Below are positions 1,106 through 19,294 of a stretch of DNA of 19,294 nucleotides, in pieces. The notes under the pieces are model-generated. The model saw only the letters and a list, made by a program, of their open reading frames with translations. It did not search any database and was not told the origin of the DNA. Position 1 is the first letter of the stretch. Each line of letters opens with the position of its first letter. The position numbers and the translations under genes are program-made. The stretch spans positions 1 through 19,294 of the forward strand of contig JBDRNU010000001.1 in the NCBI GenBank assembly GCA_043810775.1, in the 5' to 3' direction. The stretch comes from an archaeon (lineage in GTDB: Archaea; Nanobdellota; Nanobdellia; Pacearchaeales; GW2011-AR1).

Positions 1106-1387
1106 TTACTCTTTAGAAGACCATTTGGACAGAATAATTAGAGCAATTACAGCAATAAATGTAACTAAAACTGCTACTAAAAACTGAAATCCAATGCCTT
1201 TGCCCAGACCTAGCTTGTCAATAATAGTATTTACAGAAGCCTGAATTGGGTCTTTCCAGGACAAGGCAATTAAAAAGGCAAACGCTGCACCTATAGCAGT
1301 ACCTACCTGCTTTTTAAATTCTTTTCGAAGTTCAGCAGCTGTTTGAAGTGGACTTTTTCTTAGCTTTTTTTCTTGATTTTTTGGCAT
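1106..1387 (-). CDS. DUF5654-family small membrane protein
   Basis: TAIGAAFAFLIALSWKDPIQ plus a second TM helix, the pattern of this family as recalled. Confidence 0.7.
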   Translation of the reverse strand: MPKNQEKKLRKSPLQTAAELRKEFKKQVGTAIGAAFAFLIALSWKDPIQASVNTIIDKLGLGKGIGFQFLVAVLVTFIAVIALIILSKWSSKE

Positions 1388-1445: not shown

Positions 1446-1754
1446 CTACCTTCTTTTTCTTTTCTTTTTTTCAGGAAATATCTTAGTATAAATGCTTAAG
1501 ATTATAAGAATTATTATAAACCAAAATAAAATACTTATAATAAAAGCAGCTATTACGCTTGAAGTAATTCCAAAAAATACCTGGCTTATTCCCAGCATAT
1601 CTGGAAAAAATTTACAGTAATTCCAGGAATAAATTGAGTGATCAAGAGAAACTACTGGTGCTGTTTGACAGGGAATTATTTTGAGAACATAACCTAAAAA
1701 TGAAAGTATAATTGAGCTAAAAAATGCGTAAATAGGAATCTCTTTTTTTATCAT
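1446..1754 (-). CDS. Hypothetical membrane protein
   Basis: 102 aa, two TM helices flanking a two-Cys loop, basic tail. Confidence 0.75.
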   Translation of the reverse strand: MIKKEIPIYAFFSSIILSFLGYVLKIIPCQTAPVVSLDHSIYSWNYCKFFPDMLGISQVFFGITSSVIAAFIISILFWFIIILIILSIYTKIFPEKKKRKRR

Positions 1755-1799
1755 AATATATTATTGCCTGGTATAATATTTAAATCTTTCCATAAAGAG

Positions 1800-1933
1800 T
1801 GTTTAGAAGAATTAAATATTTTATCGTCGGTAAAGGGGGTGTTTAGGGGTGTTTAAACAGCTGTTTAAAAGAAATTTTGCTGTTTAAAGGCTGTTTAAAG
1901 GCTGTTTGTTGGAGTAATTAGGATGTGTTGGAA
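1800..1933. repeat. Iteron-like TGTTT(AAA) array with an 18-bp palindrome
   Basis: GGGGTGTTTA x2 (1836-1855); TTTAAACAGCTGTTTAAA palindrome (1852-1869); GCTGTTTAAAG x2 plus a partial copy (1879-1907); TGTTGGA x2 (1907, 1926). Confidence 0.85.
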
Positions 1934-2013
1934 ATGAATATTATACTTAAAAAGTGTTAAATTTACTATTATTTTAAGATATTTTTTCGTCGATAAATAT
2001 GAAAAAAGAAACA

Positions 2014-2021
2014 TTTATAAA
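2014..2021 (+). promoter_or_regulatory. Archaeal TATA box for wHTH gene A
   Basis: TTTATAAA preceded by a purine-rich BRE-like tract, ending 22 nt before ATG 2043. Confidence 0.6.
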
Positions 2022-2042
2022 CATGTTTGGATGTTAAATGAT

Positions 2043-2666
2043 ATGTTGAAGTGGTTATTTGGTGGTAAAAAAGAGGTTGAAGAGATTAAGAATGATGTTA
2101 AAAAGAGTTTTCATACTATTAAAAATGATATGGACACTGTTTCTAACTGGATTAAACACTTAAACAGCAGCGATGAAAAGCTTGACTTTAAGATTTCTGA
2201 TATAAATGAACGTTTATCGTCGATAGAAGATGAGTTTCAAGGCATGAAAAACGCGCTTGCATTTTTAGAAGGTGGATTTTCTAAACGGCTGTTTAAACAG
2301 CGACAAACAGCTGTGCGTAAACAAACAGCTGTTGAAGGTGTTCAAATACCTATACAAACAGCTGTTCAAACAGGTGATAGTGTTGATTTGTCAGTGCTGT
2401 CAGTTATGGAAAGAGCACTAGTTTTCATACTTTTGAATACTGATATGAAATTGAGTTATGATGATCTGGCTGCAATGCTTGGAAAATCAAGAGCCACAAT
2501 AAGAGGGCAGATAAATACAATAAAACAGAAAAGTGAGGGATTGATTGAAGAGATTATGGAGTCAAATGGTAAAAAAAGACTTTATGTGCCAGAGGAAGTA
2601 AAGGAAAAATTGCTAAAAAAGGTAAAAGTGAGTGGTGGAAAGAATAATAGGAAGAGGGGTAAGTGA
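2043..2666 (+). CDS. Coiled-coil + QTAV-repeat linker + C-terminal winged-helix protein (wHTH-A)
   Basis: ORF track start is 2031, but the TATA spacing favours 2043. HTH: LSYDDLAAMLGKSRATIRGQINTIKQK followed by a beta-wing (NGKKRLYV). Confidence 0.85.
   Translation: MLKWLFGGKKEVEEIKNDVKKSFHTIKNDMDTVSNWIKHLNSSDEKLDFKISDINERLSSIEDEFQGMKNALAFLEGGFSKRLFKQRQTAVRKQTAVEGVQIPIQTAVQTGDSVDLSVLSVMERALVFILLNTDMKLSYDDLAAMLGKSRATIRGQINTIKQKSEGLIEEIMESNGKKRLYVPEEVKEKLLKKVKVSGGKNNRKRGK
2282..2374. repeat. Intragenic AAACAGCTGT repeat array
   Basis: GCTGTTTAAACAGC palindrome 2288-2301; ACAAACAGCTGT at 2303, 2321 and 2354. Confidence 0.85.
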
Positions 2667-3111
2667 GGGTATATTATATAGGTAAAAATAGGGATAAAAA
2701 CGTAAAAGTGAGATAAAATCAAGATAAAAGTTCGTTTAATTAGTATATTATTAATAAAATAAGGGCTAAAAGTGGAAAAGTGAGAGTTCGTTGGGGTGGG
2801 TTGAGGTATAAAAATAGAGGAAAAAGCAGGGAAATTAATCAAAGGGAAACAGGATAAGGTAAAAGTGAGTTTAATTGATGTTTAAACAGGTTAAAACCCA
2901 AAAGTAAGAAGTAAAAAAGCTATTAATCAAGTAAAAGAGAGGGAAAAAGTGAACTCAAATAGCCCAGAAGTGAGATTAAGAGAAAATAGCTAAAAATGGC
3001 AAATAAGGCCTTTCTAGGCCATATAAGGTGAGAATTCTTGAATTTAGTTAGCAGAGCATAAATTAGATAATCGTTATATCGAATATATATTAAATAATCT
3101 GGAAAAGTGAT
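2529..3111 (+). repeat. Dispersed (GT)AAAAGTGAG direct-repeat array
   Basis: Exact AAAAGTGAG at 2529, 2624, 2704, 2776, 2861; variants near 2659, 2768, 2900, 2945, 2967, 3025, 3103; all on one strand. Confidence 0.75.
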
Positions 3112-3121
3112 ATAATGGCTT

Positions 3122-3865
3122 TTAAAGCTCTCTAAGCTGCAAAATAGTGGATAAAGAGACTATTTTCTTAAGATCTGGTGAAATATGGAGAATTATACGC
3201 TTATTATTAAGTTTTTCCTTAATTATAGGTATACCTTTACGTTGAATTTTACCTATGTAGTCCCTAATTGAGCTTTCTGAGAGGCTTAAATGCTTAGAAA
3301 GTAGTGTGTAATCTACCTCTATAATCTGCTCGTCAAGCTGATAAAGTAAGGAAAATGTGGCCATTTCCTGGGGTGTTAGCCTCTTGATTTTTAGACGTAT
3401 TTCCTTCTTAAGCCCATCTAAAGATGAGAGAATTTCTGCAGCTTTATCTAGATGATCACGAGATTTTACTTGTATTTTAGGCTCTTCTAGGGGAGAGATA
3501 TTAGTGGAGGGTTGGGGGGTAAATTGGGGTGAAATTTGAGGTATTTCACTGTATTTGTCTGTCTGTTGGTTTGTCTGTCTGTCTGTTGGAACCCCTTCAT
3601 TTCCTGTGGAAATACCCTTATTTTGGCTTTCTAAGGCTTCTAATGACTGTTGATGTGTTGGAATATGTGTTGGAGTTGTTGGAATTGGGGAACTATGTGT
3701 TGGAGTTTTAATCTTAGCTACAAGCTCGCTAAGTATATCTGCAAGAAGGTGATTTTCTGAATTTAACTTAGAAATCTCTTGTTTAATTTCAGTTATTTCT
3801 GAGCCTAAATTAAAGATGTCTTCTTTAATTTTTTTGAAAGCCTCTTTTAGTTTATCTTCATCCAT
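3122..3865 (-). CDS. Coiled-coil + PTH/TDRQ-repeat linker + C-terminal winged-helix protein (wHTH-B)
   Basis: 247 aa; HTH VDYTLLSKHLSLSESSIRDYIGKIQRKG with wing NNKRIILHI; same architecture as wHTH-A. Confidence 0.88.
   Translation of the reverse strand: MDEDKLKEAFKKIKEDIFNLGSEITEIKQEISKLNSENHLLADILSELVAKIKTPTHSSPIPTTPTHIPTHQQSLEALESQNKGISTGNEGVPTDRQTNQQTDKYSEIPQISPQFTPQPSTNISPLEEPKIQVKSRDHLDKAAEILSSLDGLKKEIRLKIKRLTPQEMATFSLLYQLDEQIIEVDYTLLSKHLSLSESSIRDYIGKIQRKGIPIIKEKLNNKRIILHISPDLKKIVSLSTILQLREL
3554..3707. repeat. Intragenic TGTTGG(A) repeat array
   Basis: (TGTC)nTGTTGG x2 (3554-3590); ATGTGTTGGA at 3653, 3665, 3695; TATGTGTTGGAGTT identical at 3664 and 3694. Confidence 0.8.
3591..3612 (-). 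promoter_or_regulatory. Putative ORB (Orc1/Cdc6 origin recognition box) inside the wHTH-B CDS
   Basis: Minus strand reads TTTCCACAGGAAATGAAGGGGT: TTCC-N3-GGAA dyad plus G-string, the archaeal ORB layout. Confidence 0.6.
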
Positions 3866-3896
3866 TTTGGATTTAAACTTTTCAAATATTTAAGGA

Positions 3897-4163
3897 TTAG
3901 TGTAATTGCTTATATGCATCATAAGCTTTATTTGAGAGTTTCCAGCGAATTCTCCTAGAATAAAATACTCCTTTTGGATTTTTCTTGACTGATACTACTA
4001 GACCTTTATCTTTGAGATCAAGAAGAAGGGCCTTAATAAATTCCTCATCACGAGCTATTTCTCGAGCTATTTCAGCTGTAAATTTAAGATTAGGAAACTC
4101 ATGATATAGATAAGATAAAACCTGCTCTGATATTTTATCGCGTTTCTCATTTGATAGCCTCAT
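3897..4163 (-). CDS. Small winged-helix DNA-binding protein
   Basis: FTAEIAREIARDEEFIKALLLDLKDKGLV followed by a wing hairpin; TATA at 4185-4192. Confidence 0.8.
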   Translation of the reverse strand: MRLSNEKRDKISEQVLSYLYHEFPNLKFTAEIAREIARDEEFIKALLLDLKDKGLVVSVKKNPKGVFYSRRIRWKLSNKAYDAYKQLH

Positions 4164-4285: not shown

Positions 4286-6910
4286 ATGATCAGAAATTGG
4301 AGGACAATTTCAGACATGGCGATTAAATTAAAGCAAGCTAAACTGAGAACTAGGGAAGATCTAATTAGAGTTATGCATCCTCTAGTCAGGGAGTGGTTTT
4401 TCTCTAAATTTAAGGAATTTTCACAACCACAATTATATGGGGTAATGCCAATTCATGATAGAAGGAATATCTTGATTTCTGCACCAACTGGTGGAACTAA
4501 AACTCTGACTGCTTTCTTAAGTATAATTAATTATCTAGTAGAGTTTGCATTTAAAAATGAACTTGCAGATAAGGTTTATGCTGTATATGTTAGTCCTTTG
4601 AAAGCTTTGAGCAATGATATTTTTGTCAATTTGGAAAATCCTCTTAAAGAAATTCAGGAACTTGCAAAAGAAAAAGGAGTAATTATGCAAAAAATAAGGG
4701 TTGATTTGAGAACAGGAGACACAAGCACATCAAAAAGGTCAGCAATGCTGAAAAATCCCCCACACATACTAGTAACTACTCCTGAAACTCTAGCTATCGT
4801 GCTTAATTCTATAAAGTTTGTTGAAAAATTACAAGGAGTTGAGTTTATTATAGTAGATGAGATTCATGCCATGGCTAATAAGAGAGGGGTTCACCTAAGC
4901 CTTAGCCTGGAAAGACTATCTGAATTAAGCAAGATATATCCAGTGAGGATAGGATTGAGCGCTACAGTGGCCCCTTTGGAGGAAATTGCTAATTTCCTAG
5001 TGGGGAATGATGCAGAATGCGAGATAGCTGATATAAGATTTGATAAAAAACTAGATATAGAAGTTATTTCACCTGTGAAAGATCTGATAGAAACTGATGC
5101 ACTTGAGATGCGATCTGGATTATATGGAATGCTAGATAAGCTAATTGAAGAACATAAGACTACACTAATATTTACTAATACTAGGAGCGCTACTGAAAGA
5201 GTAATTCATAATTTGAAAGAAATGTATCCTAAAAAATATATTGAAAATATAGGCGCACACCACTCTTCACTAAGCAAAAAACATAGATTTGATATTGAAA
5301 ATAGACTTAGAAATGGCGAATTAAAAGTAGTAGTTACAAGTACATCGCTAGAATTGGGAATTGATATAGGATATATTGATTTAGTAATCTTATTATCTAG
5401 CCCAAAATCAACTGCAAGAGCTTTGCAAAGAATAGGGAGAGCAGGGCATAAACTTCATGAAACTGTGAAAGGAAGATTTATTGTTCTTGACAGAGATGAT
5501 TTGATTGAATCATCTATAATTTTAAAAGAGGCTATTGAGGGAAAAATAGATGAGGTTCAAATACCTAAAAACTGCTTAGATGTTTTATCACAACAGATTT
5601 ATGGGATGGCTATTTATAAGGTTTGGGACAGAGAAGAAATGTTTAGGCTAATTAAAAAAAGTTATAGTTATAAAGGATTGAATAAAGAAGATTTCCTATC
5701 AGTTATAAGCTACCTTGCTGGTGAATATGCACTAGAACATAGACATGTTTATGGTAAAATCTGGTATGATGAAGAAAGCGGAAAGATTGGGAAGAGGGGT
5801 AAACTTGCTAGGGTGATTTATATGACTAATATAGGAACTATACCTGAAGAATCATATATTAATGTTGAGATTGGGGTGGGGGAGAGGAGGGGCTCTAATG
5901 TAGGAAAAATAGATGAGGGTTTTCTTGAGAGGCTGAAGAGAGGGGATGTATTTGTTTTGGGGGGGGCAAAATACGAGTTTTTGTTTTCAAGAGGAATGAA
6001 GGCTTATGTAAATGCTTCAGTTCAAAGACCTCCGACTATACCCAGTTGGTTTTCTGAAATGCTTCCACTTAGTTTTGATGTGGGGATAGAGATTGGGAGA
6101 TTTAGAAGATTGGTTGAAGAGAAATTTAATAAAAAATTAGAAAAAGAAGAAATTTTAAGCTTTATTCAAGAATATGCATACTGCAAAGCAGGAGTTGCTA
6201 AAGATATTTATAATTATTTTTATCAACAGTATAAATATCTGGGAATACCTTCAGATAAGAAAATAATTATTGAAAATTACAAAGGTGAGAAAAATTACTA
6301 TATTTTCCATACCATGTATGGGAGAAGAGTTAATGATGCTTTCTCCAGAGCTATTGGATTTTTGGTTGGGAGGCTTGGGGGGAGAGATGTAGAAATAGGA
6401 ATAAGGGATAATGGCTTTTATCTTGCTGGTGAAAAGCTACAGGTTGAGAGAGCTATGAAACATTTGAATAGCAAGAATTTAATTGAGATTTTGAAGGAGG
6501 CTATTGACAGGACTGAGGTATTAAATAGGAGGTTTAGACACTGTGCTGGAAGAAGCCTGATGATTTTAAGAAACTATAAAGGAAGAACTAAAAGTGTAGG
6601 AAGGCAGCAGGTATCTAGTTATTTATTATTAAATGCTGTGAATAAAATAAGCCATGAATTTCCTATACTAAAAGAAGCAAGAAGAGAGGTTTTTGAAGAT
6701 TTGATGGATATTGAAAACTGTAAAAAGGTTTTAGACTGGATTTCTGAAGGAAAAACAAAAATAGAATACAAAACTACTAGCCTGCCTTCCCCTTTTAGCT
6801 TAAATATTGTAATGGAAGGCTATTCTGATTTAATTAGAATGGAAGATAGAATTGAATTTCTGAAAAGGATGCATAAAGCTATAAATGAAAAGATAGATAA
6901 GAAGAAGTAA
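4286..6910 (+). CDS. lhr: Lhr-core (Lhr-like) SF2 ATP-dependent helicase
   Basis: Motifs APTGGTKT, SPLKALSND, TTPETL, DEIH, GLSAT, HHSSL, SLELGIDIG, QRIGRAGH, NIGTIP; about 870 aa; alternative start ATG 4316 after GGAGG. Confidence 0.93.
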   Translation: MIRNWRTISDMAIKLKQAKLRTREDLIRVMHPLVREWFFSKFKEFSQPQLYGVMPIHDRRNILISAPTGGTKTLTAFLSIINYLVEFAFKNELADKVYAVYVSPLKALSNDIFVNLENPLKEIQELAKEKGVIMQKIRVDLRTGDTSTSKRSAMLKNPPHILVTTPETLAIVLNSIKFVEKLQGVEFIIVDEIHAMANKRGVHLSLSLERLSELSKIYPVRIGLSATVAPLEEIANFLVGNDAECEIADIRFDKKLDIEVISPVKDLIETDALEMRSGLYGMLDKLIEEHKTTLIFTNTRSATERVIHNLKEMYPKKYIENIGAHHSSLSKKHRFDIENRLRNGELKVVVTSTSLELGIDIGYIDLVILLSSPKSTARALQRIGRAGHKLHETVKGRFIVLDRDDLIESSIILKEAIEGKIDEVQIPKNCLDVLSQQIYGMAIYKVWDREEMFRLIKKSYSYKGLNKEDFLSVISYLAGEYALEHRHVYGKIWYDEESGKIGKRGKLARVIYMTNIGTIPEESYINVEIGVGERRGSNVGKIDEGFLERLKRGDVFVLGGAKYEFLFSRGMKAYVNASVQRPPTIPSWFSEMLPLSFDVGIEIGRFRRLVEEKFNKKLEKEEILSFIQEYAYCKAGVAKDIYNYFYQQYKYLGIPSDKKIIIENYKGEKNYYIFHTMYGRRVNDAFSRAIGFLVGRLGGRDVEIGIRDNGFYLAGEKLQVERAMKHLNSKNLIEILKEAIDRTEVLNRRFRHCAGRSLMILRNYKGRTKSVGRQQVSSYLLLNAVNKISHEFPILKEARREVFEDLMDIENCKKVLDWISEGKTKIEYKTTSLPSPFSLNIVMEGYSDLIRMEDRIEFLKRMHKAINEKIDKKK

Positions 6911-6941
6911 GATTTAAATTATATGTTTTGTTGATGAAAGA

Positions 6942-7694
6942 ATGTTTGCATATGAAGAATTAAAAAAAAGATTGCCTGAATCAGAAGAGGTAATGAATGG
7001 GGAAGAGGCATTGAATTATTTTAGAGATAAAAGTAAGCCAAGAAAAGAGGCAAGATGGTATACTCTAGTTGTAAACGATATTTATTTTAGTACTTCTTTT
7101 TCAAAAGGAGCAGTTTTAGATGTGGGGTGTGGGAGTGCTGGGCTGCTTAAGGAGTTTCAGAGCTCAAATCCTGAGCTTGAATTGGTAGGGATTGATGGGT
7201 CTAAAACATTAATAGATAATGCGCACAAGTTTATAGCATCTAAGAAAATTAAGTTATTTTATTCAGATGCAGGGAAATTAAAGTTTAAAGATAGCAGTTT
7301 TGATTTGGTTGTTTGCCAAGATACGTTTCATCATTTTAGGAATCCTGTAAAGGTTCTAAAGGAAATGTATAGGGTGGTGAAAAAAGGAGGATTCATCTAC
7401 ATGACAGACTTGCGTAGAGATGTGGAGAAAGGGTTTATAGAGCAGGCAATAAGAAATATTTCAAAAAAAAGCATTGACCATACAAGGTTTTATCTTGCTT
7501 CTCTTAAGGCAGCTTATACTGTTTCTGAAATGAAACAAATAATAAAAAAATCTGGGATAAAGAAGTGTAAGGTTGCAAATGGAAAAAACGAGAGGCACAC
7601 AATGAAGATTATAAAGACAATTTTAAATCCAGAGACAAGAATTGACAAAGAAAGATTGTTTAAAGAAAGGTGGGTTGCAATAATAAAGAAGTAA
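6942..7694 (+). CDS. Class I SAM-dependent methyltransferase
   Basis: VLDVGCGSA, GID, FKDSSFDLV, FHHF..P.KVLKEMYRVVKKGG. Confidence 0.88.
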   Translation: MFAYEELKKRLPESEEVMNGEEALNYFRDKSKPRKEARWYTLVVNDIYFSTSFSKGAVLDVGCGSAGLLKEFQSSNPELELVGIDGSKTLIDNAHKFIASKKIKLFYSDAGKLKFKDSSFDLVVCQDTFHHFRNPVKVLKEMYRVVKKGGFIYMTDLRRDVEKGFIEQAIRNISKKSIDHTRFYLASLKAAYTVSEMKQIIKKSGIKKCKVANGKNERHTMKIIKTILNPETRIDKERLFKERWVAIIKK

Positions 7695-7697
7695 GAT

Positions 7698-8051
7698 TTA
7701 TCTTTTCTTTTTCTTAACTTTTTTAGAAGGGGCCTTCTGGATTGGCTGTTTATTTTTTTTAAATTGGTTTGTTTTTCTTCTAACTATTATATATAAAATA
7801 ATAATTACAACTAGGAGAACTAAAAATCCCAAAGTATAACCTATTGCTTCACCCCCTATAGCATTTCCTGTAATACTTTTTTTCCCAAACATTATTTCAT
7901 ATAAATCTTTGAAAAAAGACTTTACTTTTATTGTTATAGGAGCATTATTATCAGTTATAGTTTGATTAGTATCAACTTGAGTTGAAGCTGTTATAAAGAA
8001 TATAACCACTAGTGCAAAAGATGCTATAAGTGGAATTGTATACCTCTTCAT
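7698..8051 (-). CDS. Hypothetical membrane/surface protein
   Basis: N-terminal hydrophobic segment, ITGNAI motif, C-terminal TM and basic tail. Confidence 0.75.
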   Translation of the reverse strand: MKRYTIPLIASFALVVIFFITASTQVDTNQTITDNNAPITIKVKSFFKDLYEIMFGKKSITGNAIGGEAIGYTLGFLVLLVVIIILYIIVRRKTNQFKKNKQPIQKAPSKKVKKKKR

Positions 8052-8072
8052 AAAAAACTCAAGATAAACATA

Positions 8073-8078
8073 TTTAAA
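8073..8078. promoter_or_regulatory. Possible bidirectional TATA box
   Basis: TTTAAA lies 22 nt from ATG 8051 (-) and 26 nt from ATG 8104 (+). Confidence 0.45.
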
Positions 8079-8103
8079 ATGTTTTTGGTTGAAGAATTAT
8101 AAG

Positions 8104-8841
8104 ATGAGATATGAATTTATAGGGAAAGCCCTGCTTATTAATGATAGAATTTTGGCTATTGCAGATATACATTTAGGATATGAGGAAAATTTGACAGAGA
8201 AAGGGGTATTATTACCTAGGGGAGAGCATCTTAAAGAAACTATAAAGGATTTGGGGGAAATATTCTCAGGATTGAAAAAGCGAGGAATAAAGCTAGATAA
8301 AATAGTGATTGTTGGTGACTTGAAACACCAATTTGGCAAGATATCTGGGCAGGAGTGGAGTGAGACTCTTGAATTAATTAGTTTTCTTGAAAAAAATTGC
8401 AAAAAGGTTATCTTAGTTAAGGGAAATCATGATAATATATTGGGGCCTATTGCCTATAAAAAGAAATTGAAGATAGAGGATTTTTATGTTGAAGAAGAGG
8501 TTGCTTTTTTGCATGGTCATAAAGAGTATAAAGAAATTGAAGATAAAAAAATAAAACTAGTGGTTTGCGGGCATTTTCACCCTGCAATTATGATTTCTGA
8601 TAAGTATAAGAAAGAAACATACAAGTGTTTTTTAGAAGGGGGTTGGATTGGGAAAAAAGTAGTAATATTGCCAAGCTTTATTCACTTTGTTATGGGTAAG
8701 GAAATGTTATTTATGGATTTAGTGAGGGGATTTAGTTCTGAATTTAGCTTGAAGCTGAAGCTTGAGAATTTTAATGTTCAGATAATAGGAGATAAAGTTT
8801 ATGATTTTGGAAAGTTAAAAGATTTAAGAAGGCTTATTTAG
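8104..8841 (+). CDS. Lhr-associated calcineurin-like metallophosphoesterase
   Basis: ADIHLG, GDLKH, GNHD, HGH, GHFHP, LPSF motifs; the track's 8089 start is TTG, ATG 8104 preferred. Confidence 0.9.
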   Translation: MRYEFIGKALLINDRILAIADIHLGYEENLTEKGVLLPRGEHLKETIKDLGEIFSGLKKRGIKLDKIVIVGDLKHQFGKISGQEWSETLELISFLEKNCKKVILVKGNHDNILGPIAYKKKLKIEDFYVEEEVAFLHGHKEYKEIEDKKIKLVVCGHFHPAIMISDKYKKETYKCFLEGGWIGKKVVILPSFIHFVMGKEMLFMDLVRGFSSEFSLKLKLENFNVQIIGDKVYDFGKLKDLRRLI

Positions 8842-9287
8842 ATATAGGGAAATCTTTGCCTAACACTTAAAACAGGCCTGCTCATCGACTCTAAACCCCC
8901 TATAGGGTGCCTTTGGAAAAGTTCTCCACTTTCTGGAGTAGAGTGTAAAGTGATTGGTTCTAGGTCTTTGTCAGAGAAATCCCTCTTTGTATAATCTGGA
9001 GATCGAGGATTAAATAATACTCCGGAAAAATTTTCAAATTGACTTTTTCTTGGCATTTTAGGAATAACTGGAGGTCTCCCCATACTAGCTATTGAAGAAA
9101 CTAACTGATTATAATATCTTGGGGAGATTGGCTGTCTTTTATCTTCATTTAAAGAATAAACTTGAAATCCATGCAAGAGTTGAGGGGGCTCGACAGGCTC
9201 GTCTTCTGGGTCATAGTTAGGATCATCTAAATTTGGAAGGTCATTTAAGAATTCAAAAGAATCTGAATTAAAACCAGATCTTGCCAT
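8838..9287 (-). CDS. Hypothetical, Pro/acid-rich protein
   Basis: 149 aa ORF; TATA TTTATAAA at 9309-9316. Confidence 0.65.
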   Translation of the reverse strand: MARSGFNSDSFEFLNDLPNLDDPNYDPEDEPVEPPQLLHGFQVYSLNEDKRQPISPRYYNQLVSSIASMGRPPVIPKMPRKSQFENFSGVLFNPRSPDYTKRDFSDKDLEPITLHSTPESGELFQRHPIGGLESMSRPVLSVRQRFPYI

Positions 9288-9392
9288 TTTAAATTTACAA
9301 ACTTATAGTTTATAAATTTTACGGGAGAATATTTTTAAATATATATTTTAGAGTAAAGATAAGTAATTAAATAAAAATGCATTAAATTGAAG

Positions 9393-9875
9393 ATGAATAA
9401 AAGAATAGGGATAATATCATTAGTGATTATAGCTTGTTTAGTAGTTGTTTCTGCGCAGTGTGATAAAGGGTATGATGGAGGATATGATTATGGCTGGAAG
9501 GAGGGGTATGATGATGGTTATGCCCCAGGATATGATGATGGAAGATATGATTATGAATATAGACATAACTTTGAGTATGATAAAGAATATAAGAGATATT
9601 ACGACGACTGTTATTGGAATGGGTATAATTTAGGATATAACAGGGCTTATAAAAAGGGTTATGAAGGAGGGTATGATGATGGAAGAGAGGTGCGCAGGTA
9701 CAAAAGCACTAAGAGGTCTTACTCTAGTGGCTGTGATGATAGATATTATAATTGTGAACGAGACAGCAAGAGGAGATATTACAAAGAAGATAGGTATGAG
9801 CAAGATTATGGTTCTGAAAAATATAATGAAGGTTTTAGTTTCTTATCAAGAATCTTGAAAGATGTTTTTCATTAA
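9393..9875 (+). CDS. Secreted Tyr/Gly/Asp-rich GYxxG-repeat protein
   Basis: Signal peptide ending VVSA-Q, then two runs of GYxx repeats. Confidence 0.75.
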   Translation: MNKRIGIISLVIIACLVVVSAQCDKGYDGGYDYGWKEGYDDGYAPGYDDGRYDYEYRHNFEYDKEYKRYYDDCYWNGYNLGYNRAYKKGYEGGYDDGREVRRYKSTKRSYSSGCDDRYYNCERDSKRRYYKEDRYEQDYGSEKYNEGFSFLSRILKDVFH

Positions 9876-10207
9876 ATTTTAGATAAGGCGTAAACTACTG
9901 CTTCTATGTACTCTTGGGGAGTCATTTTCATAGTGTAATTTTTCTGAGAGCATGTCCTGGAAGAAGAAAACAAAAGATTTTGAGGGGAACCTACTGAAAC
10001 TTTCTGTGAGCTCATAAAATTAAGAAAATTCTTTCTTCTTCTGTAAAAAGTCTTATAATCAATCGGCTTTTTTTGTTCAAGCTTGTCCAGAATTTTATCT
10101 ACAAGAATTCCATCATAACCTATTTTTACAGGTAAAGAATGGGTCACAATGTAGCCTGAAATAACTTCTGTGTATTGAAATAATTCTCTCTGACTATATT
10201 CTGCCAT
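9872..10207 (-). CDS. Hypothetical protein
   Basis: Track ORF 9872..10252; ATG 10207 directly follows the aminopeptidase stop. Confidence 0.6.
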   Translation of the reverse strand: MAEYSQRELFQYTEVISGYIVTHSLPVKIGYDGILVDKILDKLEQKKPIDYKTFYRRRKNFLNFMSSQKVSVGSPQNLLFSSSRTCSQKNYTMKMTPQEYIEAVVYALSKI

Positions 10208-10208
10208 G

Positions 10209-11285
10209 TTAGATTTTCCACTTTCCGTTTTCTTGAATAATTTTTCCATCAAGAATTATTTTTGCTTTTCTCATGTCTTTGACAATATCAATATGAACTG
10301 CAGAATCATTGCCTCCACCATTTTCCTTGTAAGCAGAACCTAAAGCAAGATGGATGGTTCCGGCAATTTTTTCATCAAACAATAAATTCTTTGTGAATTT
10401 TGTAACTTTTTTATTTAACCCAATTCCAAACTCCCCAATATAAGAAGAATTTTCATCTGTTTCTAAGATTTCCTTAAGCAAGTCTTTGTTTTTTGAAGCG
10501 TCAAACTCAATAACTTTTCCATTTTCAAATTTTAGAGAAACATCATGAATTTCTTTGGCAGCATTTGTTATTGGGTGCTCGAATTTAATCCAACCTTCCA
10601 TTGATTCCCTAATAGGTGCCATAAAAACCTCCCCCATAGGAACATTATCACCATCAATATCAGATTTTGCATCCTTACCATTAATCTTAAACTTCAAGTC
10701 AACATTTTCACCAATTAAATGAACTTTTTTGCCTTTTTTGAATTCATTTAAAACTTTATTCATGAACTTACATATTTTCTTCCAATCCTGCAAGCAAGCA
10801 TTATAAACAAAATTTTCATAGTCTGAAAAAGACATTTCTGCATTTAGAGCTAGTGCAATGCAGGGATATGCAATGGTGCACCTTTTTATTTCAGATTTAT
10901 TATTACAAATATAATCAGATATTGGGGCTGTAATTTTATGCCTTATCATAATTTTTTTAGGATTAGCTAGAGATAACTCGTGAGGATTTGTTTCAGTATT
11001 AATACCAATATACTTATCGGCATACTTAACTAAATCCATTAGATGCTGGGGGAAATGCTCAATCTGCTCCTTACTAGCATATTTATAAAAAAAATCAGCG
11101 ACGTTTGGAAGTCCAATTTTTACTATTGGGTGAGCTTTTCTTAAGATTATTTCTTTATACAGCTCGGTAATGAAAGGAATTGCCTCTGGCTCTCCAGAAA
11201 TAATAACTTGCTCGCCTGGCTTTACATAAACTGCATAATTTACAGCAAGTTTAGCCAGCTTCCTAGTTCTAAGGTCTAGAGGCAT
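10209..11285 (-). CDS. M29 family aminopeptidase (AmpS/AmpT-like)
   Basis: NVPMGEVFMAP, IGEFGIG, LFDEKIAGTIHLALGSAY, NDSAVHID; ATG 11285 preferred to TTG 11294. Confidence 0.92.
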   Translation of the reverse strand: MPLDLRTRKLAKLAVNYAVYVKPGEQVIISGEPEAIPFITELYKEIILRKAHPIVKIGLPNVADFFYKYASKEQIEHFPQHLMDLVKYADKYIGINTETNPHELSLANPKKIMIRHKITAPISDYICNNKSEIKRCTIAYPCIALALNAEMSFSDYENFVYNACLQDWKKICKFMNKVLNEFKKGKKVHLIGENVDLKFKINGKDAKSDIDGDNVPMGEVFMAPIRESMEGWIKFEHPITNAAKEIHDVSLKFENGKVIEFDASKNKDLLKEILETDENSSYIGEFGIGLNKKVTKFTKNLLFDEKIAGTIHLALGSAYKENGGGNDSAVHIDIVKDMRKAKIILDGKIIQENGKWKI

Positions 11286-11286
11286 T

Positions 11287-11547
11287 TTATTCAATAGTTA
11301 ATTCAACTTTTCCAGATTTAATTTTATCAGCTAGAGTATTTTTAAGTTCAGAAATTCTTTCTTCGTAATCTTCACCAGGATTTGGACCCTTGATAATATA
11401 ATATAAAACGTGACTGCAATTTCTTGCACTTTCAAGAACAAATTCAAAACTTGGAGTAATATCAGCCGTATAACCCCTTCCAGTTAACATTCTTGCACGA
11501 CTTCCTGGAACTGGGCTGAATGCATAAATTAGAGCTTTTTTTGCCAT
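11287..11547 (-). CDS. Hypothetical protein
   Basis: 86 aa ORF abutting the aminopeptidase gene. Confidence 0.6.
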   Translation of the reverse strand: MAKKALIYAFSPVPGSRARMLTGRGYTADITPSFEFVLESARNCSHVLYYIIKGPNPGEDYEERISELKNTLADKIKSGKVELTIE

Positions 11548-11748
11548 TTTAATTTCCCAGAATTAGGCATCTGAACGCCACCACCTCTGACTTATAGGGA
11601 AATTACAAGTATAAAAAGTTAACTATTTGCTGTTATGTGGGGTGGCTGAAAGTCGACTGATTAGAGAAATCTTTGATTTCGTATGGAAAGTATGATAAAG
11701 GACACTATTATAATAATATTAATAAATCAAAGAGTGTTTTCTTTAATT

Positions 11749-12153
11749 ATGAGTAAACCTAAATTACATTTTGGACATCCCATCAGCACATATGGTACAA
11801 CCATAGAGCAAAAATTGATTGAAATTATCGAAGAACATTTTCCAGAATACGAATTAGATAATTGTAACCAATCACATCACCAAAAAGCAGCAAAAAAGTT
11901 AAGAGAAGAAACTGGGAATCCAATGGAATATTTTTTTAAGGAATTTATTCCAAAAATGTCAGTTGGAGTCTTTTTGCCATATAGAGATGGGATGTTTGGT
12001 TCAGGAGTTTATGATGAAGCAGTTCAGATGCACCAAGAAAGAAAACCTATTTATCAAATTGATTATAAAGGAGTAATTTTTGAGATGAGACTTAATAATT
12101 CTAAAAGGCTGTCAATTCCTGAAACTAAAGCGAGAAATAAAGTGTCTGAGTAA
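11749..12153 (+). CDS. Hypothetical, nucleoside 2-deoxyribosyltransferase-like fold
   Basis: KLHFGHP at the N-terminus and VFLPY.DG.FGSGVYDE resemble NDT/RCL-type N-glycosidases; track start is 11683. Confidence 0.55.
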   Translation: MSKPKLHFGHPISTYGTTIEQKLIEIIEEHFPEYELDNCNQSHHQKAAKKLREETGNPMEYFFKEFIPKMSVGVFLPYRDGMFGSGVYDEAVQMHQERKPIYQIDYKGVIFEMRLNNSKRLSIPETKARNKVSE

Positions 12154-12222
12154 TATTGCACATAATTGAAATATAGCCTATAAGAACACAATTCTTTTAA
12201 AGGGGTAAACACAGAAAACATT

Positions 12223-13575
12223 ATGAAAGCTTACTTGAAGTGCATTATTCCTTCTTGTGATTTTAGAGAGTCAATTTACAAGGAGATAACTGAATGCCCT
12301 AAATGTGGGAATCTTTTAGATGTAGCTTACGAGGATCAGGATCCTACTTCTTTTAAGGAGCTTTTTGACTGCAGAAAAAGAAATGCAAAGAAAATATTTG
12401 ATAAAAGTGGGGTTTGGAGATATAGGGAGCTTCTTCCTTTTCCATTTGAGCATGAAAATCCAGAAAAAATCCTAGTATCACTAGATGGTAAGGAAGGGCA
12501 GTCAAGTCCTTTTCATTTGACAGAAGTTGCAAAGTATGTAGGAATTAGAAGTGAAGATTTTTATCTTCAGAGTGAGGGGGAAAATCCTACAGGAAGCTTT
12601 AAAGATAATGGCATGGCAGCAGCATTTACTCATGCAAAAATGCTTAATAGGGAGAAAGTAGTTTGTGCTAGCACTGGAAATACTTCTGCATCAATGGCAG
12701 CTTTTGCTGCAAATGAGCTTGGAAATATAAAAGCAATTATTTTTATTGGAAGTGGAAAAATTTCAATGGGCAAGCTGGCACAGAGCCTGGAATATGGTGC
12801 AAAAGTTATACAAATTAAAGGGGATTTTGATGATGCTATGGCTAAAGTAATAGAGGTTGCTGCGAAAGAAAATCTTTATGTTATGAATTCTATAAATCCT
12901 TTTAGATTAGAGGGACAGAAAACTATGATGTATAGATTATTGGAGGGTTTGGATTGGAAAGTTCCTGATTGGGTAGTATGTCCGGGGGGAAATTTAGGAA
13001 ACTCTTCTGCATTTGGAAAGGCATTTTATGAGTTGAAGAGTTTAGGTTTAATAGATAAAATGCCGAGAATCGCAGTAATTAATGCTAAAGGTGCAGATAC
13101 CTTATATAGATTATACAATCAAGAAGGTCTAAGATGGAATAAAGGAAGTGTTGATTTTGAAAAAATTAAAAAATTCTATGAAAATATGGATAAAGAAAAC
13201 AGAAGAGCCAGCACCCTTGCTTCTGCTATTGAGATTAACAGGCCTGTTAATTTGATAAAAACTTTAAGAGCATTAGAATTGACTAATGGGGTTGTTGAAG
13301 AAGTAGAGGATATGGATATGCTAGATGCTAAGGCTATTGTTGGAAGAAATGGGTTTGGGTGTGAGCCTGCAAGTGCTGCTTCAGTTGCTGGAATAAAAAA
13401 ATTAGTTGAAAAAGGCGTAATAAAACAGACTGAGGTTGTTGTAGGTATAATGACGGGGCATCAGCTTAAGGATCCGAAAGTCACTATCGAATATCATACT
13501 GGAAATAATAAATATAGCAATAAACCAATTGAGGTTGAGAATAGTGCAGAAGATATAATAAAAGCTTTAAATTAA
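12223..13575 (+). CDS. thrC: Threonine synthase (PLP-dependent)
   Basis: NPTGSFKD (PLP lysine), CASTGNTSAS, NSINPFRLEGQKT, PGGNLGN, EPASA, TGHQLKD; N-terminal Cys4 ribbon. Confidence 0.93.
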   Translation: MKAYLKCIIPSCDFRESIYKEITECPKCGNLLDVAYEDQDPTSFKELFDCRKRNAKKIFDKSGVWRYRELLPFPFEHENPEKILVSLDGKEGQSSPFHLTEVAKYVGIRSEDFYLQSEGENPTGSFKDNGMAAAFTHAKMLNREKVVCASTGNTSASMAAFAANELGNIKAIIFIGSGKISMGKLAQSLEYGAKVIQIKGDFDDAMAKVIEVAAKENLYVMNSINPFRLEGQKTMMYRLLEGLDWKVPDWVVCPGGNLGNSSAFGKAFYELKSLGLIDKMPRIAVINAKGADTLYRLYNQEGLRWNKGSVDFEKIKKFYENMDKENRRASTLASAIEINRPVNLIKTLRALELTNGVVEEVEDMDMLDAKAIVGRNGFGCEPASAASVAGIKKLVEKGVIKQTEVVVGIMTGHQLKDPKVTIEYHTGNNKYSNKPIEVENSAEDIIKALN

Positions 13576-14438
13576 CTATGCTGAAAATTATCTCCTCTTA
13601 ACTTATCAAGTTCTGCTTTTGCTTGATTAAAACGTTTTTGCGCTTCTTCTACTTGCCTTTGTTTTTTGAGCTGTTCAATTTCAGCTTGAGCTTCTTTGAG
13701 TTTTTTTTCAGCGTCAGCCAGAGTATCTTGAGGTATAAAAACCTCAGATTGTTGCTGAGCTTGCTGTTCTTGCTCTTGTTTTTGTTTTTCTCTGAAATCT
13801 GAGAGTTTAGTAACTTTAATTTTCTCTTTTGATTCTTCTTTAATAGGAGAAGATTTAAACCTACGAACAATCATTAAACCTAGAACTCCTAGAAGAATTG
13901 CAAGAATAATAATATAATAACCAATATTAGTAGTAATATTTTGAAAAAAAGAACTCGCATCATCTACAGTTATTGCTGCTCCAGTTATTCCAGAAGCATC
14001 TTGAGATTCAGCTACTATATCTGCAGTTGCTTCTGATTCGTTTGTAGTATTTTCAGTTATATTTACTGTAACTTCTGTTGAAGTGACAGGGGTAGGGTCT
14101 TGAGCTTCATCATCTAAAATACTTATAAAAATAGGCTCGTTAGTTGAAAATGGGCCAAGTTTTTCGTGAGTTTCTTTAATTATCCCATCTTTTACAACTA
14201 GAATAGTCATATCAATAGAAGCCCTATTTGTTGAAAAATTACCTGTAGCATTACCATTTAGGTTTGCTTTTAAATATAAACTATCTATTACTGCAAAAGT
14301 AGTAGGGTCTAGAAGTCTTAAAACTAGATTTTGCCCCGGCTTTGCCCTTATGTTTACCTTAACATTAGTTTCAGCTAGACTTAAAGGAATAACTAGTAAA
14401 ATAAACATTAAAAATAAAACAGCTCCTCTTTTAATCAT
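13572..14438 (-). CDS. Single-pass surface protein with cytoplasmic coiled coil
   Basis: Signal peptide, beta-rich ectodomain, T/N-rich linker, ITGAAI, TM helix, Q/E/K coiled coil; ATG 14438 fits TATA 14461-14468. Confidence 0.8.
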   Translation of the reverse strand: MIKRGAVLFLMFILLVIPLSLAETNVKVNIRAKPGQNLVLRLLDPTTFAVIDSLYLKANLNGNATGNFSTNRASIDMTILVVKDGIIKETHEKLGPFSTNEPIFISILDDEAQDPTPVTSTEVTVNITENTTNESEATADIVAESQDASGITGAAITVDDASSFFQNITTNIGYYIIILAILLGVLGLMIVRRFKSSPIKEESKEKIKVTKLSDFREKQKQEQEQQAQQQSEVFIPQDTLADAEKKLKEAQAEIEQLKKQRQVEEAQKRFNQAKAELDKLRGDNFQHS

Positions 14439-14471
14439 ATTCAAATTTGAGTTTTTGTAGTTTATAAATTT

Positions 14472-14807
14472 TTATATACTGGCTAGAAGTTCGAGTGCTT
14501 TGGCTGCAGATATACTATCTTCAATAACAAGGAATTTTTCACTTTCTAAAAATTCCTTGAAAGCCAGGGCTTCTACTATTTGTGATGAGTCACAATATCC
14601 GTGACAATCAAAACCATAGCATAATACTATATCTCCTGGAGGAGAATTATTTAGAAAATAAAGCCAGGCGATTTGTTGAGAGTCTGGTTTTATAGGTTTA
14701 ATAGAGTATTTTGGCCCGAGACCTTGACTAAGAGGTGAGGGGGAAGAGACTTCATAACCGGCATGCTGAAGGAAAGGTATAATTTCTTTTGTAATTTCTT
14801 TTGGCAT
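14472..14807 (-). CDS. Hypothetical protein
   Basis: Track ORF 14472..14816; ATG 14807 follows the upstream stop. Confidence 0.6.
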   Translation of the reverse strand: MPKEITKEIIPFLQHAGYEVSSPSPLSQGLGPKYSIKPIKPDSQQIAWLYFLNNSPPGDIVLCYGFDCHGYCDSSQIVEALAFKEFLESEKFLVIEDSISAAKALELLASI

Positions 14808-14808
14808 T

Positions 14809-15228
14809 TTATTCAATTAACCAGGTTTGAATTATTATAAATATTATTGCAATAATACTTAGTATTCCTTTAAGAGCAAGGAATGCGTGATTTTCAAAAC
14901 GAAGATAAGGTATGGAGAAGATTCCCGCAATTATGGCAAGAAAACCAATTATTACAGTAACCATATGGGTAAAATTAGTAGGGGTAAGACCTTCTATTTT
15001 TATTTTCTTGAATCTTGTAATCTGGCCTTCTATGACTAATCCTATACCTACAATAAACATCAGGAGAGCTTCGACATACATTTTCGCGTCAAACTCAAAC
15101 AAAGTTTCAGAAATTATTCCAATAAATCCGAGGATACTTACAATTGCAAGAACAGATACAAATTTATGTGAAGCTGTAACTCTTTTTTTAATAATTTCTC
15201 GCTCAATTGAAACCTCTTTATTTATCAT
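14809..15228 (-). CDS. Four-TM membrane protein
   Basis: 139 aa with four hydrophobic helices; TATA at 15250-15255. Confidence 0.8.
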   Translation of the reverse strand: MINKEVSIEREIIKKRVTASHKFVSVLAIVSILGFIGIISETLFEFDAKMYVEALLMFIVGIGLVIEGQITRFKKIKIEGLTPTNFTHMVTVIIGFLAIIAGIFSIPYLRFENHAFLALKGILSIIAIIFIIIQTWLIE

Positions 15229-15267
15229 AAAATTTAGAATTTAACTTGTTTTAAATATTTTTTGGAA

Positions 15268-16701: not shown

Positions 16702-16702
16702 T

Positions 16703-18187: not shown

Positions 18188-18363
18188 TAAAAAGCATTGA
18201 ATAAGACATTTAAATAAATTTATATACTAATATAATATTGATGCAGTCTTGCTGAATCTCAAATATTATATATTATTATTTTTAGTGAGTATTCTTCTAT
18301 GGCTGGAAGTTTAATAGTTTATAATTTAGCTAAAAGAAGAGAAAGTGAGAAAAACAGAATATT

Positions 18364-18792
18364 TTATTTAATATACTCCCTATTTTGATCTTTTGGAGGA
18401 CCGAGTTTTGGCATAGGAATATGTGGGGGAAGAGAAAACTCTTCTTCAAGTTGAAGTGCCTTAATATTACACTTAGAGAATATAAAATTAAAAAGAGGTA
18501 TTCTTAATTCATCCCCTATTTTCTTGTTTTTCCATTTCTTGATTATATCTTTGGTTTTTTGATTATCAAATACAACTAAAACATAACCTTCAAAAGAGAT
18601 ATTCGCAATTTTAGGCTCATAACCTATAGCATATTCAAAATCAAACCTTATTATTTCTTTATTATCCAGTGCCTCTATCTTTTCACTTGTAACTTTCTTG
18701 ACATCTATATTTGTTTTTATCTCTATCTTACCTTTAGAAGGGTTAGTTCTCTCACCTGATATTTTTTGGAAATTAAAACCTACTATTTGCAT
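18364..18792 (-). CDS. Conserved archaeal hypothetical protein (possible SecB-like fold)
   Basis: Four beta-strand pattern, then helices and a LPPHIPMP tail; fold call is tentative. Confidence 0.6.
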   Translation of the reverse strand: MQIVGFNFQKISGERTNPSKGKIEIKTNIDVKKVTSEKIEALDNKEIIRFDFEYAIGYEPKIANISFEGYVLVVFDNQKTKDIIKKWKNKKIGDELRIPLFNFIFSKCNIKALQLEEEFSLPPHIPMPKLGPPKDQNREYIK

Positions 18793-19082: not shown

Positions 19083-19294
19083 AACAGACTCAGCTTTAAT
19101 TTATTTATAAAGTTTTCTATGTTGTAAATATCATATCAGGAAAAGCAAGCTTGAAGATATTTGAGGTATTATTAGAGTTTTTTAATATATTATACTAAAA
19201 TTTGATGATCCCTGCCCCCATTGTTTCTTATGGAAAGGTTTATAAAGAAAAATTTGATTTTCTTTTTTTATTTTTTATTTATAAATATTTATAT

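Follow-up and report, generated by a model that had tools for sequence, protein, structure and literature searches.

The window, i.e. the whole 19,294-nucleotide contig JBDRNU010000001.1 of a Pacearchaeales archaeon (GCA_043810775.1; contig C1 of an assembly with 26 contigs, 995,483 bp, 33% G+C and an estimated completeness of 80%), encodes two convergent genes, A and B, and a neighbouring gene C, all for small winged helix-turn-helix (wHTH) proteins. Together with the 276-bp divergent promoter region 5' of A these genes form the module under study. Codon usage across 57-59 orthologs shows the in-gene arrays of A and B to be DNA-level elements, the one in B containing a full origin recognition box (ORB), and in relatives the module lies beside a canonical replication origin, oriC, with the gene orc1/cdc6. 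We interpret the module, with moderate confidence, as an origin-flanking accessory and regulatory unit of the Nanoarchaeia and not as the origin itself, its motifs being predicted binding sites. The coordinates of the features are collected in Table 1.

Relatives are represented by 59 fetched loci encoding an ortholog of A, from metagenome-assembled genomes labelled Nanoarchaeota, Pacearchaeota or Woesearchaeota. In 57 of the 59 loci the genes are arranged as A> <B <C. While A is present in all 59, B is found in 57, always convergent with A and with both misses at contig ends, and C in 49, always directly upstream of B. The gene for an Lhr-type helicase stands next to C, as in the window, in only 10 loci. 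As B and C accompany A in most loci while Lhr rarely does, the A> <B <C trio is the conserved unit. An earlier note on this DNA, made from the sequence alone, had described two convergent genes with a common coiled-coil/linker/wHTH layout, a third wHTH gene adjacent to them, and repeat families plus an ORB-like box within 2.4 kb. This description holds: the structure models of A and B agree with the layout, as does their profile-profile alignment; gene C is the third gene; all repeat families exceed chance and are nearly unique in the 995-kb assembly; and the box is a full ORB. The note had asked for synteny of the wHTH pair and for conservation of the arrays at the DNA level in orthologs, both of which are found.

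Synonymous constraint in the linkers of A and B

In gene A, residues 97-114 (K-QTAV-x-x-VQT-x-VQT-x-VQT) are constrained at synonymous sites across the 59 orthologs. The glutamines are encoded by CAA throughout (58/58, 58/58 and 50/50), threonine by ACA in 54 of 55 cases and valine by GTT or GTC, never by GTA, which makes up 18% of the valine codons gene-wide. The variable residue of the repeat (A, G, P, V, D or T) uses NNT codons, i.e. GGT (20/20), GCT (20/21) and CCT (8/8). The drop in third-position entropy is 0.90 bit over residues 97-114 vs 0.18 bit elsewhere (Mann-Whitney p 2e-9); gene C, serving as control, has a drop of 0.06 bit and no synonymous constraint. Because the third bases of the codons are fixed even where the residue varies, the conserved unit in A is a 12-nt DNA word, nnT-GTY-CAA-ACA, the same motif as upstream of A. 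The linker of A consists of three to four phased TGTYCAAACA boxes, the motif being common to the upstream arrays of nearly all relatives. A further in-gene element lies in the helix-coding part of A, where Ser63 is TCG in 35 of the 36 orthologs with a serine at this position (TCG accounting for ~10% of A's serine codons), giving TCGTCGAT, and where residue 64 is encoded by TCG (20) or ACG (14); TCGTCGAT matches the CG[ACT]CG box found upstream of A.

In gene B, residues 86-106 show an entropy drop of 0.95 bit vs 0.15 bit elsewhere (p 1e-9). Ser86 is TCC in 53 of 53 orthologs (16% of the serine codons overall) and Gly91 is GGG in 52 of 53, aspartate is encoded by GAC (35/35) and asparagine by AAC (18/18 and 27/27), codons with a share of ~30-34% overall, and threonine by ACA (51/51). 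Phased direct repeats are present in both genes, as 12-nt boxes in A and as a 4/12-nt tract in B, and the arrays coincide with predicted disordered linkers. Since the arrays fall into these parts, the proteins would tolerate them.

The constraint might, alternatively, not reflect DNA-protein sites but an RNA-level signal, i.e. an mRNA element, an antisense or a small RNA, or selection on the peptide repeat combined with codon preference or with homogenisation of the repeats by slippage or gene conversion. Both linkers keep QT at a 4-residue period and align with each other, the tracts look like microsatellites, which homogenise by slippage, and an antisense open reading frame (ORF) of 60 aa (3529-3711) overlaps B's linker, all of which would fit such an account. 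However, because the varying residues retain their third base (NNT, RAC, ARA), peptide selection cannot explain the constraint. Moreover, these motifs are also present, and in palindromic form, beyond the TATA box, where the DNA is untranscribed; the ORB box is no repeat, and searches with Rfam at gathering threshold and with ARAGORN found no RNA family or tRNA in the window. We regard constraint of this non-binding kind as highly improbable.

An origin recognition box and its companion boxes in gene B

In the text available to us, the ORB consensus is given as GTTCCAGTGGAAAC-AAA----GGGGG (PMC1868953), and 'TTCC' and 'GAA' are named as its core motifs (PMC1904270). The box in the linker-coding part of B reads TTTCCACAGGAAAT and contains the dyad core (TTCC ... 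GAA(A), TTCCAnnGGAAAC-like) with the G-string GAAGGGGT 3' of it. The regular expression TCCAnnRGAAAYnnnGGGG(G)T matches 47 of the 57 B orthologs; four lack the region and six read GGGGCT or GGAGT. A slightly wider expression has two matches in the whole assembly: one is the box in B, which points towards oriC, and the other is oriC's left ORB (19215-19234). Both are on the minus strand. In four long contigs of relatives, ORB matches occur only inside B, plus one at oriC in G001.

The ORB in B is accompanied by further elements. Relatives carry (ACAG)n, (ACAA)n or (CCAA)n over 36-48 nt at the position of the (ACAR)n tract, directly after the ORB, and three or four TTCCAACA boxes before it. The boxes come in the variants TTCCAACA, TTCGACA and TTCAGACA. 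In the eight loci with TTCGACA next to the ORB the remaining boxes are mostly TTCGACA too, i.e. the change is concerted, and codons 69 and 93 of B, counted as pairs, read TCG/TCG in 6 and CCA/CCA in 29 cases.

Motif arrays upstream of A and their confinement to the module

Compared with 200 shuffles of the window, GCTGTTTAAA with at most one mismatch has 15 matches vs 3.8 expected, a number reached by 0 of the 200 shuffles, and 11 of the 15 lie in 1848-2890. AAAAGTGAG matches 5 times vs 0.38 expected, always on the plus strand within 2529-2869, and TGTTGGA 8 times vs 2.4 expected, 7 of these in 1907-3704. Tandem Repeats Finder (TRF) detects arrays with a period of 10/11 at 1836-1907 and one with a period of 12 at 2339-2373, as well as (TGTC)7.8 at 3556-3586.

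The array upstream of A is composed of GTGTTTA(G/A) boxes, the palindrome TGTTTAAACAGCTGTTTAAA (1850-1869) 2.6 copies of GCTGTTTAAAG (1879-1907) and two TGTTGGA boxes (1907 and 1926). The motif [GC]TGTTT[AG][AG] matches 7 times in 1799-1891 and 4 times in 2152-2293, and elsewhere in the 995 kb no two matches are found within 150 bp. The locus holds 3 of the 4 assembly copies of TGTTTAAACA, all 3 of AACAGCTGTT, 2 of the 3 of TCGTCG[AG]TAAA and 4 of the 8 of TGTGTTGGA. This organisation recurs among the relatives: nearly all 59 loci have arrays of TGTTTAAACAG, TGTTTGGACAG or CAAACAGCTGTTTG-type boxes in the 300 bp that precede A, and a CG[ACT]CG box lies at most 120 nt from A's ATG in 30 of the 59, with 22 of 34 matches at -45 to -47.

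The strict 10-mer TGTYYRAACA was counted on either strand over 60 sources comprising 627,536 bp, with 159 matches within A, 85 at most 400 bp upstream of A, one in the A-B spacer and 40 elsewhere, i.e. 244 of 285 fall in A or its upstream 400 bp. Upstream of orc1 the 10-mer has no match in these sources. In the four long contigs, 4/8, 7/9, 6/16 and 6/10 motif matches lie at most 5 kb from the module. The occurrence of the TGTCCAAACA variant at upstream sites is correlated with that at in-gene sites (Spearman 0.52, p 1e-4, n=49).

Two assignments of the arrays were rejected. They do not constitute an ORB origin upstream of A, the 10-mer having no match upstream of orc1 and the ORB expression none upstream of A; nor are they part of a global regulon or of dispersed parS-like sites, the motif clustering nowhere else in the assembly or the four long contigs.

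Further repeats lie outside the arrays. Just beyond them, 250-300 nt upstream of A, many relatives carry an element 'gtgcactaaggtNNNcttagt' with an internal inverted repeat, of which none was seen in the window. In the A-B spacer of the listed relatives A[AG]GTGA[GA] is present in 0-3 copies, often directly past A's stop codon. The palindrome TATTCGGTwwACCGAATA recurs 3' of B's stop in many relatives (e.g. L005, L022, L026 and L029) and could be a terminator or a further binding site; the copy in the window (~3066-3090) is degenerate.

The proteins: distant paralogs with MarR/Lrs14-like folds

Protein A has the conserved motif MFxWLFGxKK at its N-terminus, followed by a long helix; a disordered linker leads from there to a MarR/Lrs14-like wHTH, and the tail is basic. 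AlphaFold2 (AF2) models of A and B, resting on alignments of 19 and 31 rows, show for A a single long helix (13-84), a linker (83-116) at a predicted local distance difference test score (pLDDT) <50 and a wHTH (125-198) at pLDDT 87-93, and for B a helix (3-52), a low-confidence linker (53-134, pLDDT 52-62) and a wHTH (135-246) at pLDDT 89-97. The C-terminal domains of both have a wHTH fold in these models and in Foldseek comparisons. For A, AbfR2/Lrs14 (6cmv) ranks first with E 2.5e-4, followed by MepR, MarR and SlyA, the wHTH of ORC2 appearing only at rank 8 (E 1.4e-3) amid generic wHTH matches; for B, MepR/MarR (4lll, 3bpx) are found at ~4e-4. Nothing specific to Rep, WhiP or Cdc6-WH was found by Foldseek for A or B, including the Rep WH1-WH2 and O initiator folds, and Pfam and NCBIfam hold no Rep family matching them.

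By BLASTP, A and B have no similarity, and in the own genome each matches only itself at E<=1. Profile-profile alignment (hhalign) relates them with 94.5% probability and E 8e-8 over 170 collinear columns, the linkers aligning too (GVQ..VQT.VQT with GVPTDRQTNQQT). Since this alignment spans both proteins end to end, A and B are, by their profiles, distant paralogs. The best Pfam match is HTH_11, which reaches 23.4 bits with A, against a cut-off of 25, and 19 bits with B, and the Lrs14 NCBIfam model scores 16 bits against a cut-off of 90, so that neither protein is assigned to MarR or Lrs14 by family models; a sequence search of the PDB together with Pfam and NCBIfam returned only sub-threshold HTH and generic coiled-coil matches. 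At E<=1e-3, A has 2274 and B 1335 homologs, all labelled automatically (hypothetical, 'biotin operon repressor', 'HTH domain-containing' or 'MarR family'), and a protein atlas search found only unnamed Nanobdellota clusters, labelled HTH type 11, then MarR-like. The A profile matches (E<=1e-5) in 90 of 301 sampled genomes of the phylum, among them the genome of the window and 12 of the 13 other genomes of its family.

The N-terminus of A, MFxWLFGxKKE (window 2043-2075; residues 5-15), is near-invariant, W8 and F10 being fixed in 19 sequences, and many more distant proteins of the class with 200-300 aa match A over the first 60-90 residues only. An ESCRT-III-like membrane anchor, considered for this motif as a presumption, was dropped. 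A predicted complex of A residues 5-86 with B residues 1-56, built from their own alignments and run without controls, scored 0.04, which speaks neither for nor against an interaction. Genes B and C, separated by 31 nt, are probably co-transcribed.

The folds are those of transcription regulators, and A, B and C might form a plain autoregulated cassette of ordinary MarR/Lrs14-type factors, according to which all boxes including the ORB-like one are the proteins' own operators (upstream activating sites and intragenic roadblocks) and the position at oriC is inherited synteny. Such a cassette would account for the confinement of the sites to the regulators' own genes, for a box found in one clade directly upstream of the B recognition element (BRE) and TATA box, at -52 from A's ATG, and for a module that works 15 kb from oriC, as in the window. 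It accounts less well for a box in B that fits the ORB consensus including the G-string and that has a single counterpart in the assembly, at oriC and in the same orientation, or for an oriC/orc1 synteny kept over a wide span of the class; in addition, a regulator without a target beyond itself needs further explanation. We consider the cassette rather unlikely.

A canonical oriC beside the module

The assembly encodes one orc1/cdc6 gene (Cdc6_C search), located on the minus strand at the end of contig C17 (34188-35399), 204 bp short of the contig border. Five relatives with long contigs have orc1 a few kb past C. By tblastn it is found in 29 of the 59 loci, at a distance of 1.1-4.5 kb from C; among the 33 loci whose sequence continues for at least 4.5 kb past C, it is present in 25. 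In 29 of these 33 a gene for ~140 aa and a PRC-barrel gene for 84-87 aa stand between C and orc1. PRC-barrel proteins have been linked to archaeal cell division. The region from the PRC-barrel gene to orc1 (265-844 bp) has a classic origin anatomy in the 26 loci examined, i.e. an ORB (CCCC...TTTCnnnTGGA), an AT-rich duplex unwinding element (DUE; tttataaatatttatattatatattatata), often (aat)n, and inverted ORBs (TCCATAGGAAAtaaaGGTG).

The same two genes, here for 142 aa and for an 86-aa PRC-barrel protein, are the last two of the window, followed by the left half of oriC. Right-hand ORBs and orc1 are found at the end of C17 (L001 2660-2874). As the window stops inside the DUE and the end of C17 has the right-hand ORBs, contigs C1 and C17 probably abut at oriC. 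In this genome ~14 kb (4286-18363, Lhr to IMPDH) part C from the 142-aa gene, the two being contiguous in most relatives. This segment encodes the Lhr helicase, a methyltransferase, an M29 peptidase, a pyridoxal phosphate (PLP) enzyme, adenylosuccinate synthetase and IMPDH.

These results bear on the central proposal of the earlier note, i.e. a replication origin or centromere-like locus served by dedicated non-Orc1 wHTH initiators. Its statement that the rest of the window has no arrays of this kind is right in that no second motif cluster exists but overlooks the left half of oriC at the 3' end (19083-19294). Its statement that neither Orc1/Cdc6 nor a ParA-type ATPase is encoded within the window is confirmed by profile searches, which place orc1 on C17 and the partition ATPase families PF13614 and PF01656 only on contigs C26 and C11, with no match among 17 scanned window ORFs.

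A separate origin or a centromere-like segregation locus, with A, B and C as dedicated initiators or centromere-binding proteins, would be in line with phased direct repeats inside and upstream of the genes, with a site cluster unique in the genome, with predicted coiled coils that could bridge DNA, with the presence of an ORB and with an origin-proximal position, as known for bacterial parS. Against it stand the complete canonical oriC with orc1 next door and the folds, which are not Rep-, WhiP- or Cdc6-like; in the module region neither an AT-rich DUE flanked by inverted ORBs next to orc1 nor an inverted ORB pair was found, the contig encodes no ParA/SegA-type ATPase, and the skew, switching in one of four contigs, is unable to separate such a site from oriC. 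Because a canonical oriC with orc1 lies alongside, DUE and inverted ORBs are missing and no partition ATPase is linked, the module is predicted to be neither an independent origin nor a ParABS-type centromere, and we judge such a role very doubtful. The proposal of the earlier note stands as far as the association with the origin is concerned (orc1 beyond C in 29 of 59 loci), but not as regards the origin itself or a centromere with a linked ParA-type partner. Its dedicated initiators are not supported, the folds being MarR/Lrs14-like and a canonical oriC lying beside the module, and the comparison it had suggested with Rep, WhiP and Cdc6-WH structures gave Lrs14/MarR regulators as best matches.

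Table 1. Features of the module, its surroundings and related loci (positions in the window unless a locus is named)
Feature	Position	Strand	Sequence or remark
DUF5654 membrane-protein gene	1106-1387	-	upstream of A
102-aa membrane-protein gene	1446-1754	-	upstream of A
Upstream array	1799-1932		flanked by two divergent promoters, that of the 102-aa membrane-protein gene and that of A
CG box 1	1820-1834		TTTATCGTCGGTAAA; matches TCGTCG[AG]TAAA
CG box 2	1985-1999		TTTTTCGTCGATAAA; promoter-proximal, directly 5' of TATA-like TTTATAAA at 2014-2021
Gene A	2031/2043-2666	+	211/207 aa; ORF opens at 2031, start in orthologs is the ATG at 2043
In-gene CG box of A	2213-2224	+	TTATCGTCGATA; encodes L-S-S-I
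In-gene array of A	2282-2375	+	CTGTTTAAACAG, then ACAAACAGCTGT x3 in 12-nt phase; encodes linker 'LFKQ..KQTAV..QTAVQT'
AAAAGTGAG x5	2529-2890	+	2 in the 3' coding end of A, 3 in the purine-rich A-B spacer
Extra TGTTTAAACAG copy	2879-2889		in the A-B spacer
Gene B	3122-3865	-	247 aa; paralog of A: N-terminal helix, long predicted disordered linker, MarR-like wHTH
(ACAR)n tract	3554-3590	-	read T-D-R-Q / T-N-Q-Q
Fifth TTCCAACA-type box	3584-3590		abuts the ORB
ORB in gene B	3591-3612	-	TTTCCACAGGAAATGAAGGGGT; codons 85-92, I-S-T-G-N-E-G-V; same orientation as the left ORB of oriC
Four TTCCAACA-type boxes	3656-3704	-	plus strand TGTTGGA at 3656, 3668, 3677 and 3698; read P-T(-H)
Gene C	3897-4163	-	88 aa; stand-alone small wHTH
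Lhr-type helicase gene	4286-6910		next after gene C
142-aa gene	18364-18792	-	no Pfam family
86-aa PRC-barrel gene	18822-19082	-	PF05239, E 1.5e-10
Left half of canonical oriC	19083-19294		ORB at 19215-19234 (-) and first part of the conserved DUE, within which the contig breaks off
Extra TGTTTAAACA arrays of relatives	L008 3043-3390; L019 3434/3752; L050 3104; L006 3405; L017 4314-4326; L035/L036 ~2865-3073		1-3 kb upstream of A

On the other side of the module, the 102-aa membrane-protein gene is divergent from A in 15 of the 59 loci, and the DUF5654 gene is present in 7.

A model for the module and the points against it

Reading the module as an origin-flanking accessory and regulatory unit supports a model according to which the ORB inside B would be an outlying binding site of Orc1/Cdc6, comparable to those in dp1 of the Thermococcales. 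Protein A, as a coiled-coil oligomer, would occupy the TGTTTAAACAG-type boxes both within its gene and upstream of it, resulting in autoregulation and possibly in a loop of ~450 bp around the A promoter; the motif arrays of A are palindromic and lie 110-250 bp upstream of this promoter. B and/or C may bind the TTCCAACA and (ACAR)n boxes, and the TGTTGGA boxes at 1907 and 1926 upstream of A could thereby link genes A and B. The resulting complexes might couple Orc1 occupancy at the origin to expression of the three genes, or organise the left origin flank, where the coiled coils of A and B possibly give a looped or bridged complex.

A more far-reaching possibility is that the A/B region of ~2 kb itself takes part in replication or segregation and forms one higher-order complex with oriC, in which Orc1 sits on the ORB in B while A and B, as coiled-coil oligomers, sit on the in-gene and upstream arrays, building a bipartite origin or an origin-tethering 'coding centromere'. 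If so, A and B would be lineage-specific initiation or segregation factors of the Nanoarchaeia, and their linker peptides mere read-outs of the DNA platform that A and B bind. We consider such a complex unlikely.

Several observations weigh against the origin-flanking unit. The module lies 15 kb from oriC in this genome, and therefore tight proximity is not required. Of the four long contigs, a single one has a switch of GC skew and gene orientation at the orc1/oriC locus, the skew following the coding strand: in G004:C1 the module occupies 319-324 kb, with the minimum of orientation at 320,856, while G002:C1, G001:C3 (first 400 kb) and G005:C1 have no switch at the locus. In these three (L068-L085, L105-L135), skew and orientation run in one direction for hundreds of kb across orc1/oriC, which is odd if genes are co-oriented with replication from there. 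Since the switch is seen in one of four contigs only, the result is equivocal, speaking neither for nor against the origin assignment, which rests on the ORB/DUE/orc1 anatomy and on general knowledge; in any case, skew cannot separate A/B from an oriC 1-5 kb away. The ORB in B is solitary, with neither an inverted partner nor a DUE in the module region, and its spacing before the G-string is shorter than in the euryarchaeal consensus as given in the available text of PMC1868953. The covariation of the TGTCCAAACA variant was calculated with no account of phylogeny, and the loci with TTCGACA boxes form mostly one neighbourhood, with one outlier, in a FastTree tree of A; because of this clustering their changes are not independent events. 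The Pfam HTH scores of A, B and C are all under the gathering cut-offs. The extra TGTTTAAACA arrays that some relatives have 1-3 kb upstream of A are left unexplained by the model. Finally, which protein binds which motif is a guess, all binding being predicted from sequence features.

The extra TGTTTAAACA arrays are located inside HAD-hydrolase genes or border Xer-type integrase or serine-recombinase genes, and they might mark a role in recombination or attachment, or further embedded sites.

Significance and comparison with known systems

Replication origins and their control are essentially undescribed in the DPANN archaea, and our literature search found no paper on ORBs or replication origins in DPANN or Pacearchaeota. 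The locus gives the oriC anatomy of a large uncultured class, in which a conserved DUE with inverted ORBs is accompanied by orc1. The additional ORB inside a gene, retained in >45 species, would extend the dp1 case of the Thermococcales to a distant lineage and to another host gene. The module also offers a natural case of two paralogous genes with cis-elements in linker DNA, in which DNA sites appear to dictate the peptide sequence, and its three small uncharacterised wHTH proteins are candidates for origin-linked regulation.

The oriC of archaea and the box in B have in common the TTCC..GGAAA dyad, the G-string and the orientation of the lineage's left ORB; unlike a canonical oriC, the box in B lies inside an ORF and has neither a DUE nor an inverted partner. 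Phage lambda O with ori-lambda and plasmid iteron Rep genes carry phased direct repeats in the linker-coding part of their own gene, and so do A and B. In contrast to these systems, A and B have no homology to Rep or O and not their fold, no AT-rich unwinding region is adjacent, and a canonical Orc1 origin lies next door. In R1 parC/ParR, Sulfolobus SegAB and pNOB8 AspA, repeat arrays surround the promoter of the binding protein's operon. The module resembles them in having arrays of 10-12-bp repeats around its own promoter at a single locus of the genome, but it has no linked partition ATPase, and its proteins are MarR/Lrs14-like wHTH proteins with coiled coils and not of the ribbon-helix-helix (RHH) or ArsR type. 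With Lrs14/AbfR and MarR regulators A and B have the C-terminal fold in common (6cmv, 4lll, 3bpx), whereas the additional N-terminal helix of 50-70 residues and the long linker set them apart, and neither a ligand pocket nor a regulon is evident.

The closest described precedent is the cluster of ORBs and mini-ORBs inside the dp1 gene for the small subunit of PolD, which according to Matsunaga et al. 2007 (PMC1904270) is present order-wide in Pyrococcus/Thermococcus and, both in vivo and in vitro, is bound by Cdc6/Orc1 to about the same degree as oriC. In both cases a protein-coding gene at a distance of 1-5 kb from oriC harbours an ORB, which is conserved at the level of an order or a class. 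They differ in that the host here is the gene of a wHTH regulator and not of a polymerase subunit, with a candidate site known from sequence; that the cluster of B is on the side of oriC away from orc1; that it consists of one full ORB together with TTCCAACA half-like boxes and an (ACAR)n tract; and that a second, non-ORB motif family fills the paralogous gene A and its promoter. Intragenic ORBs and operator arrays are thus already known kinds of element, while the host genes, the second motif family common to a promoter and the coding sequence of a paralog, and the degree to which DNA sites dictate two linkers are new.

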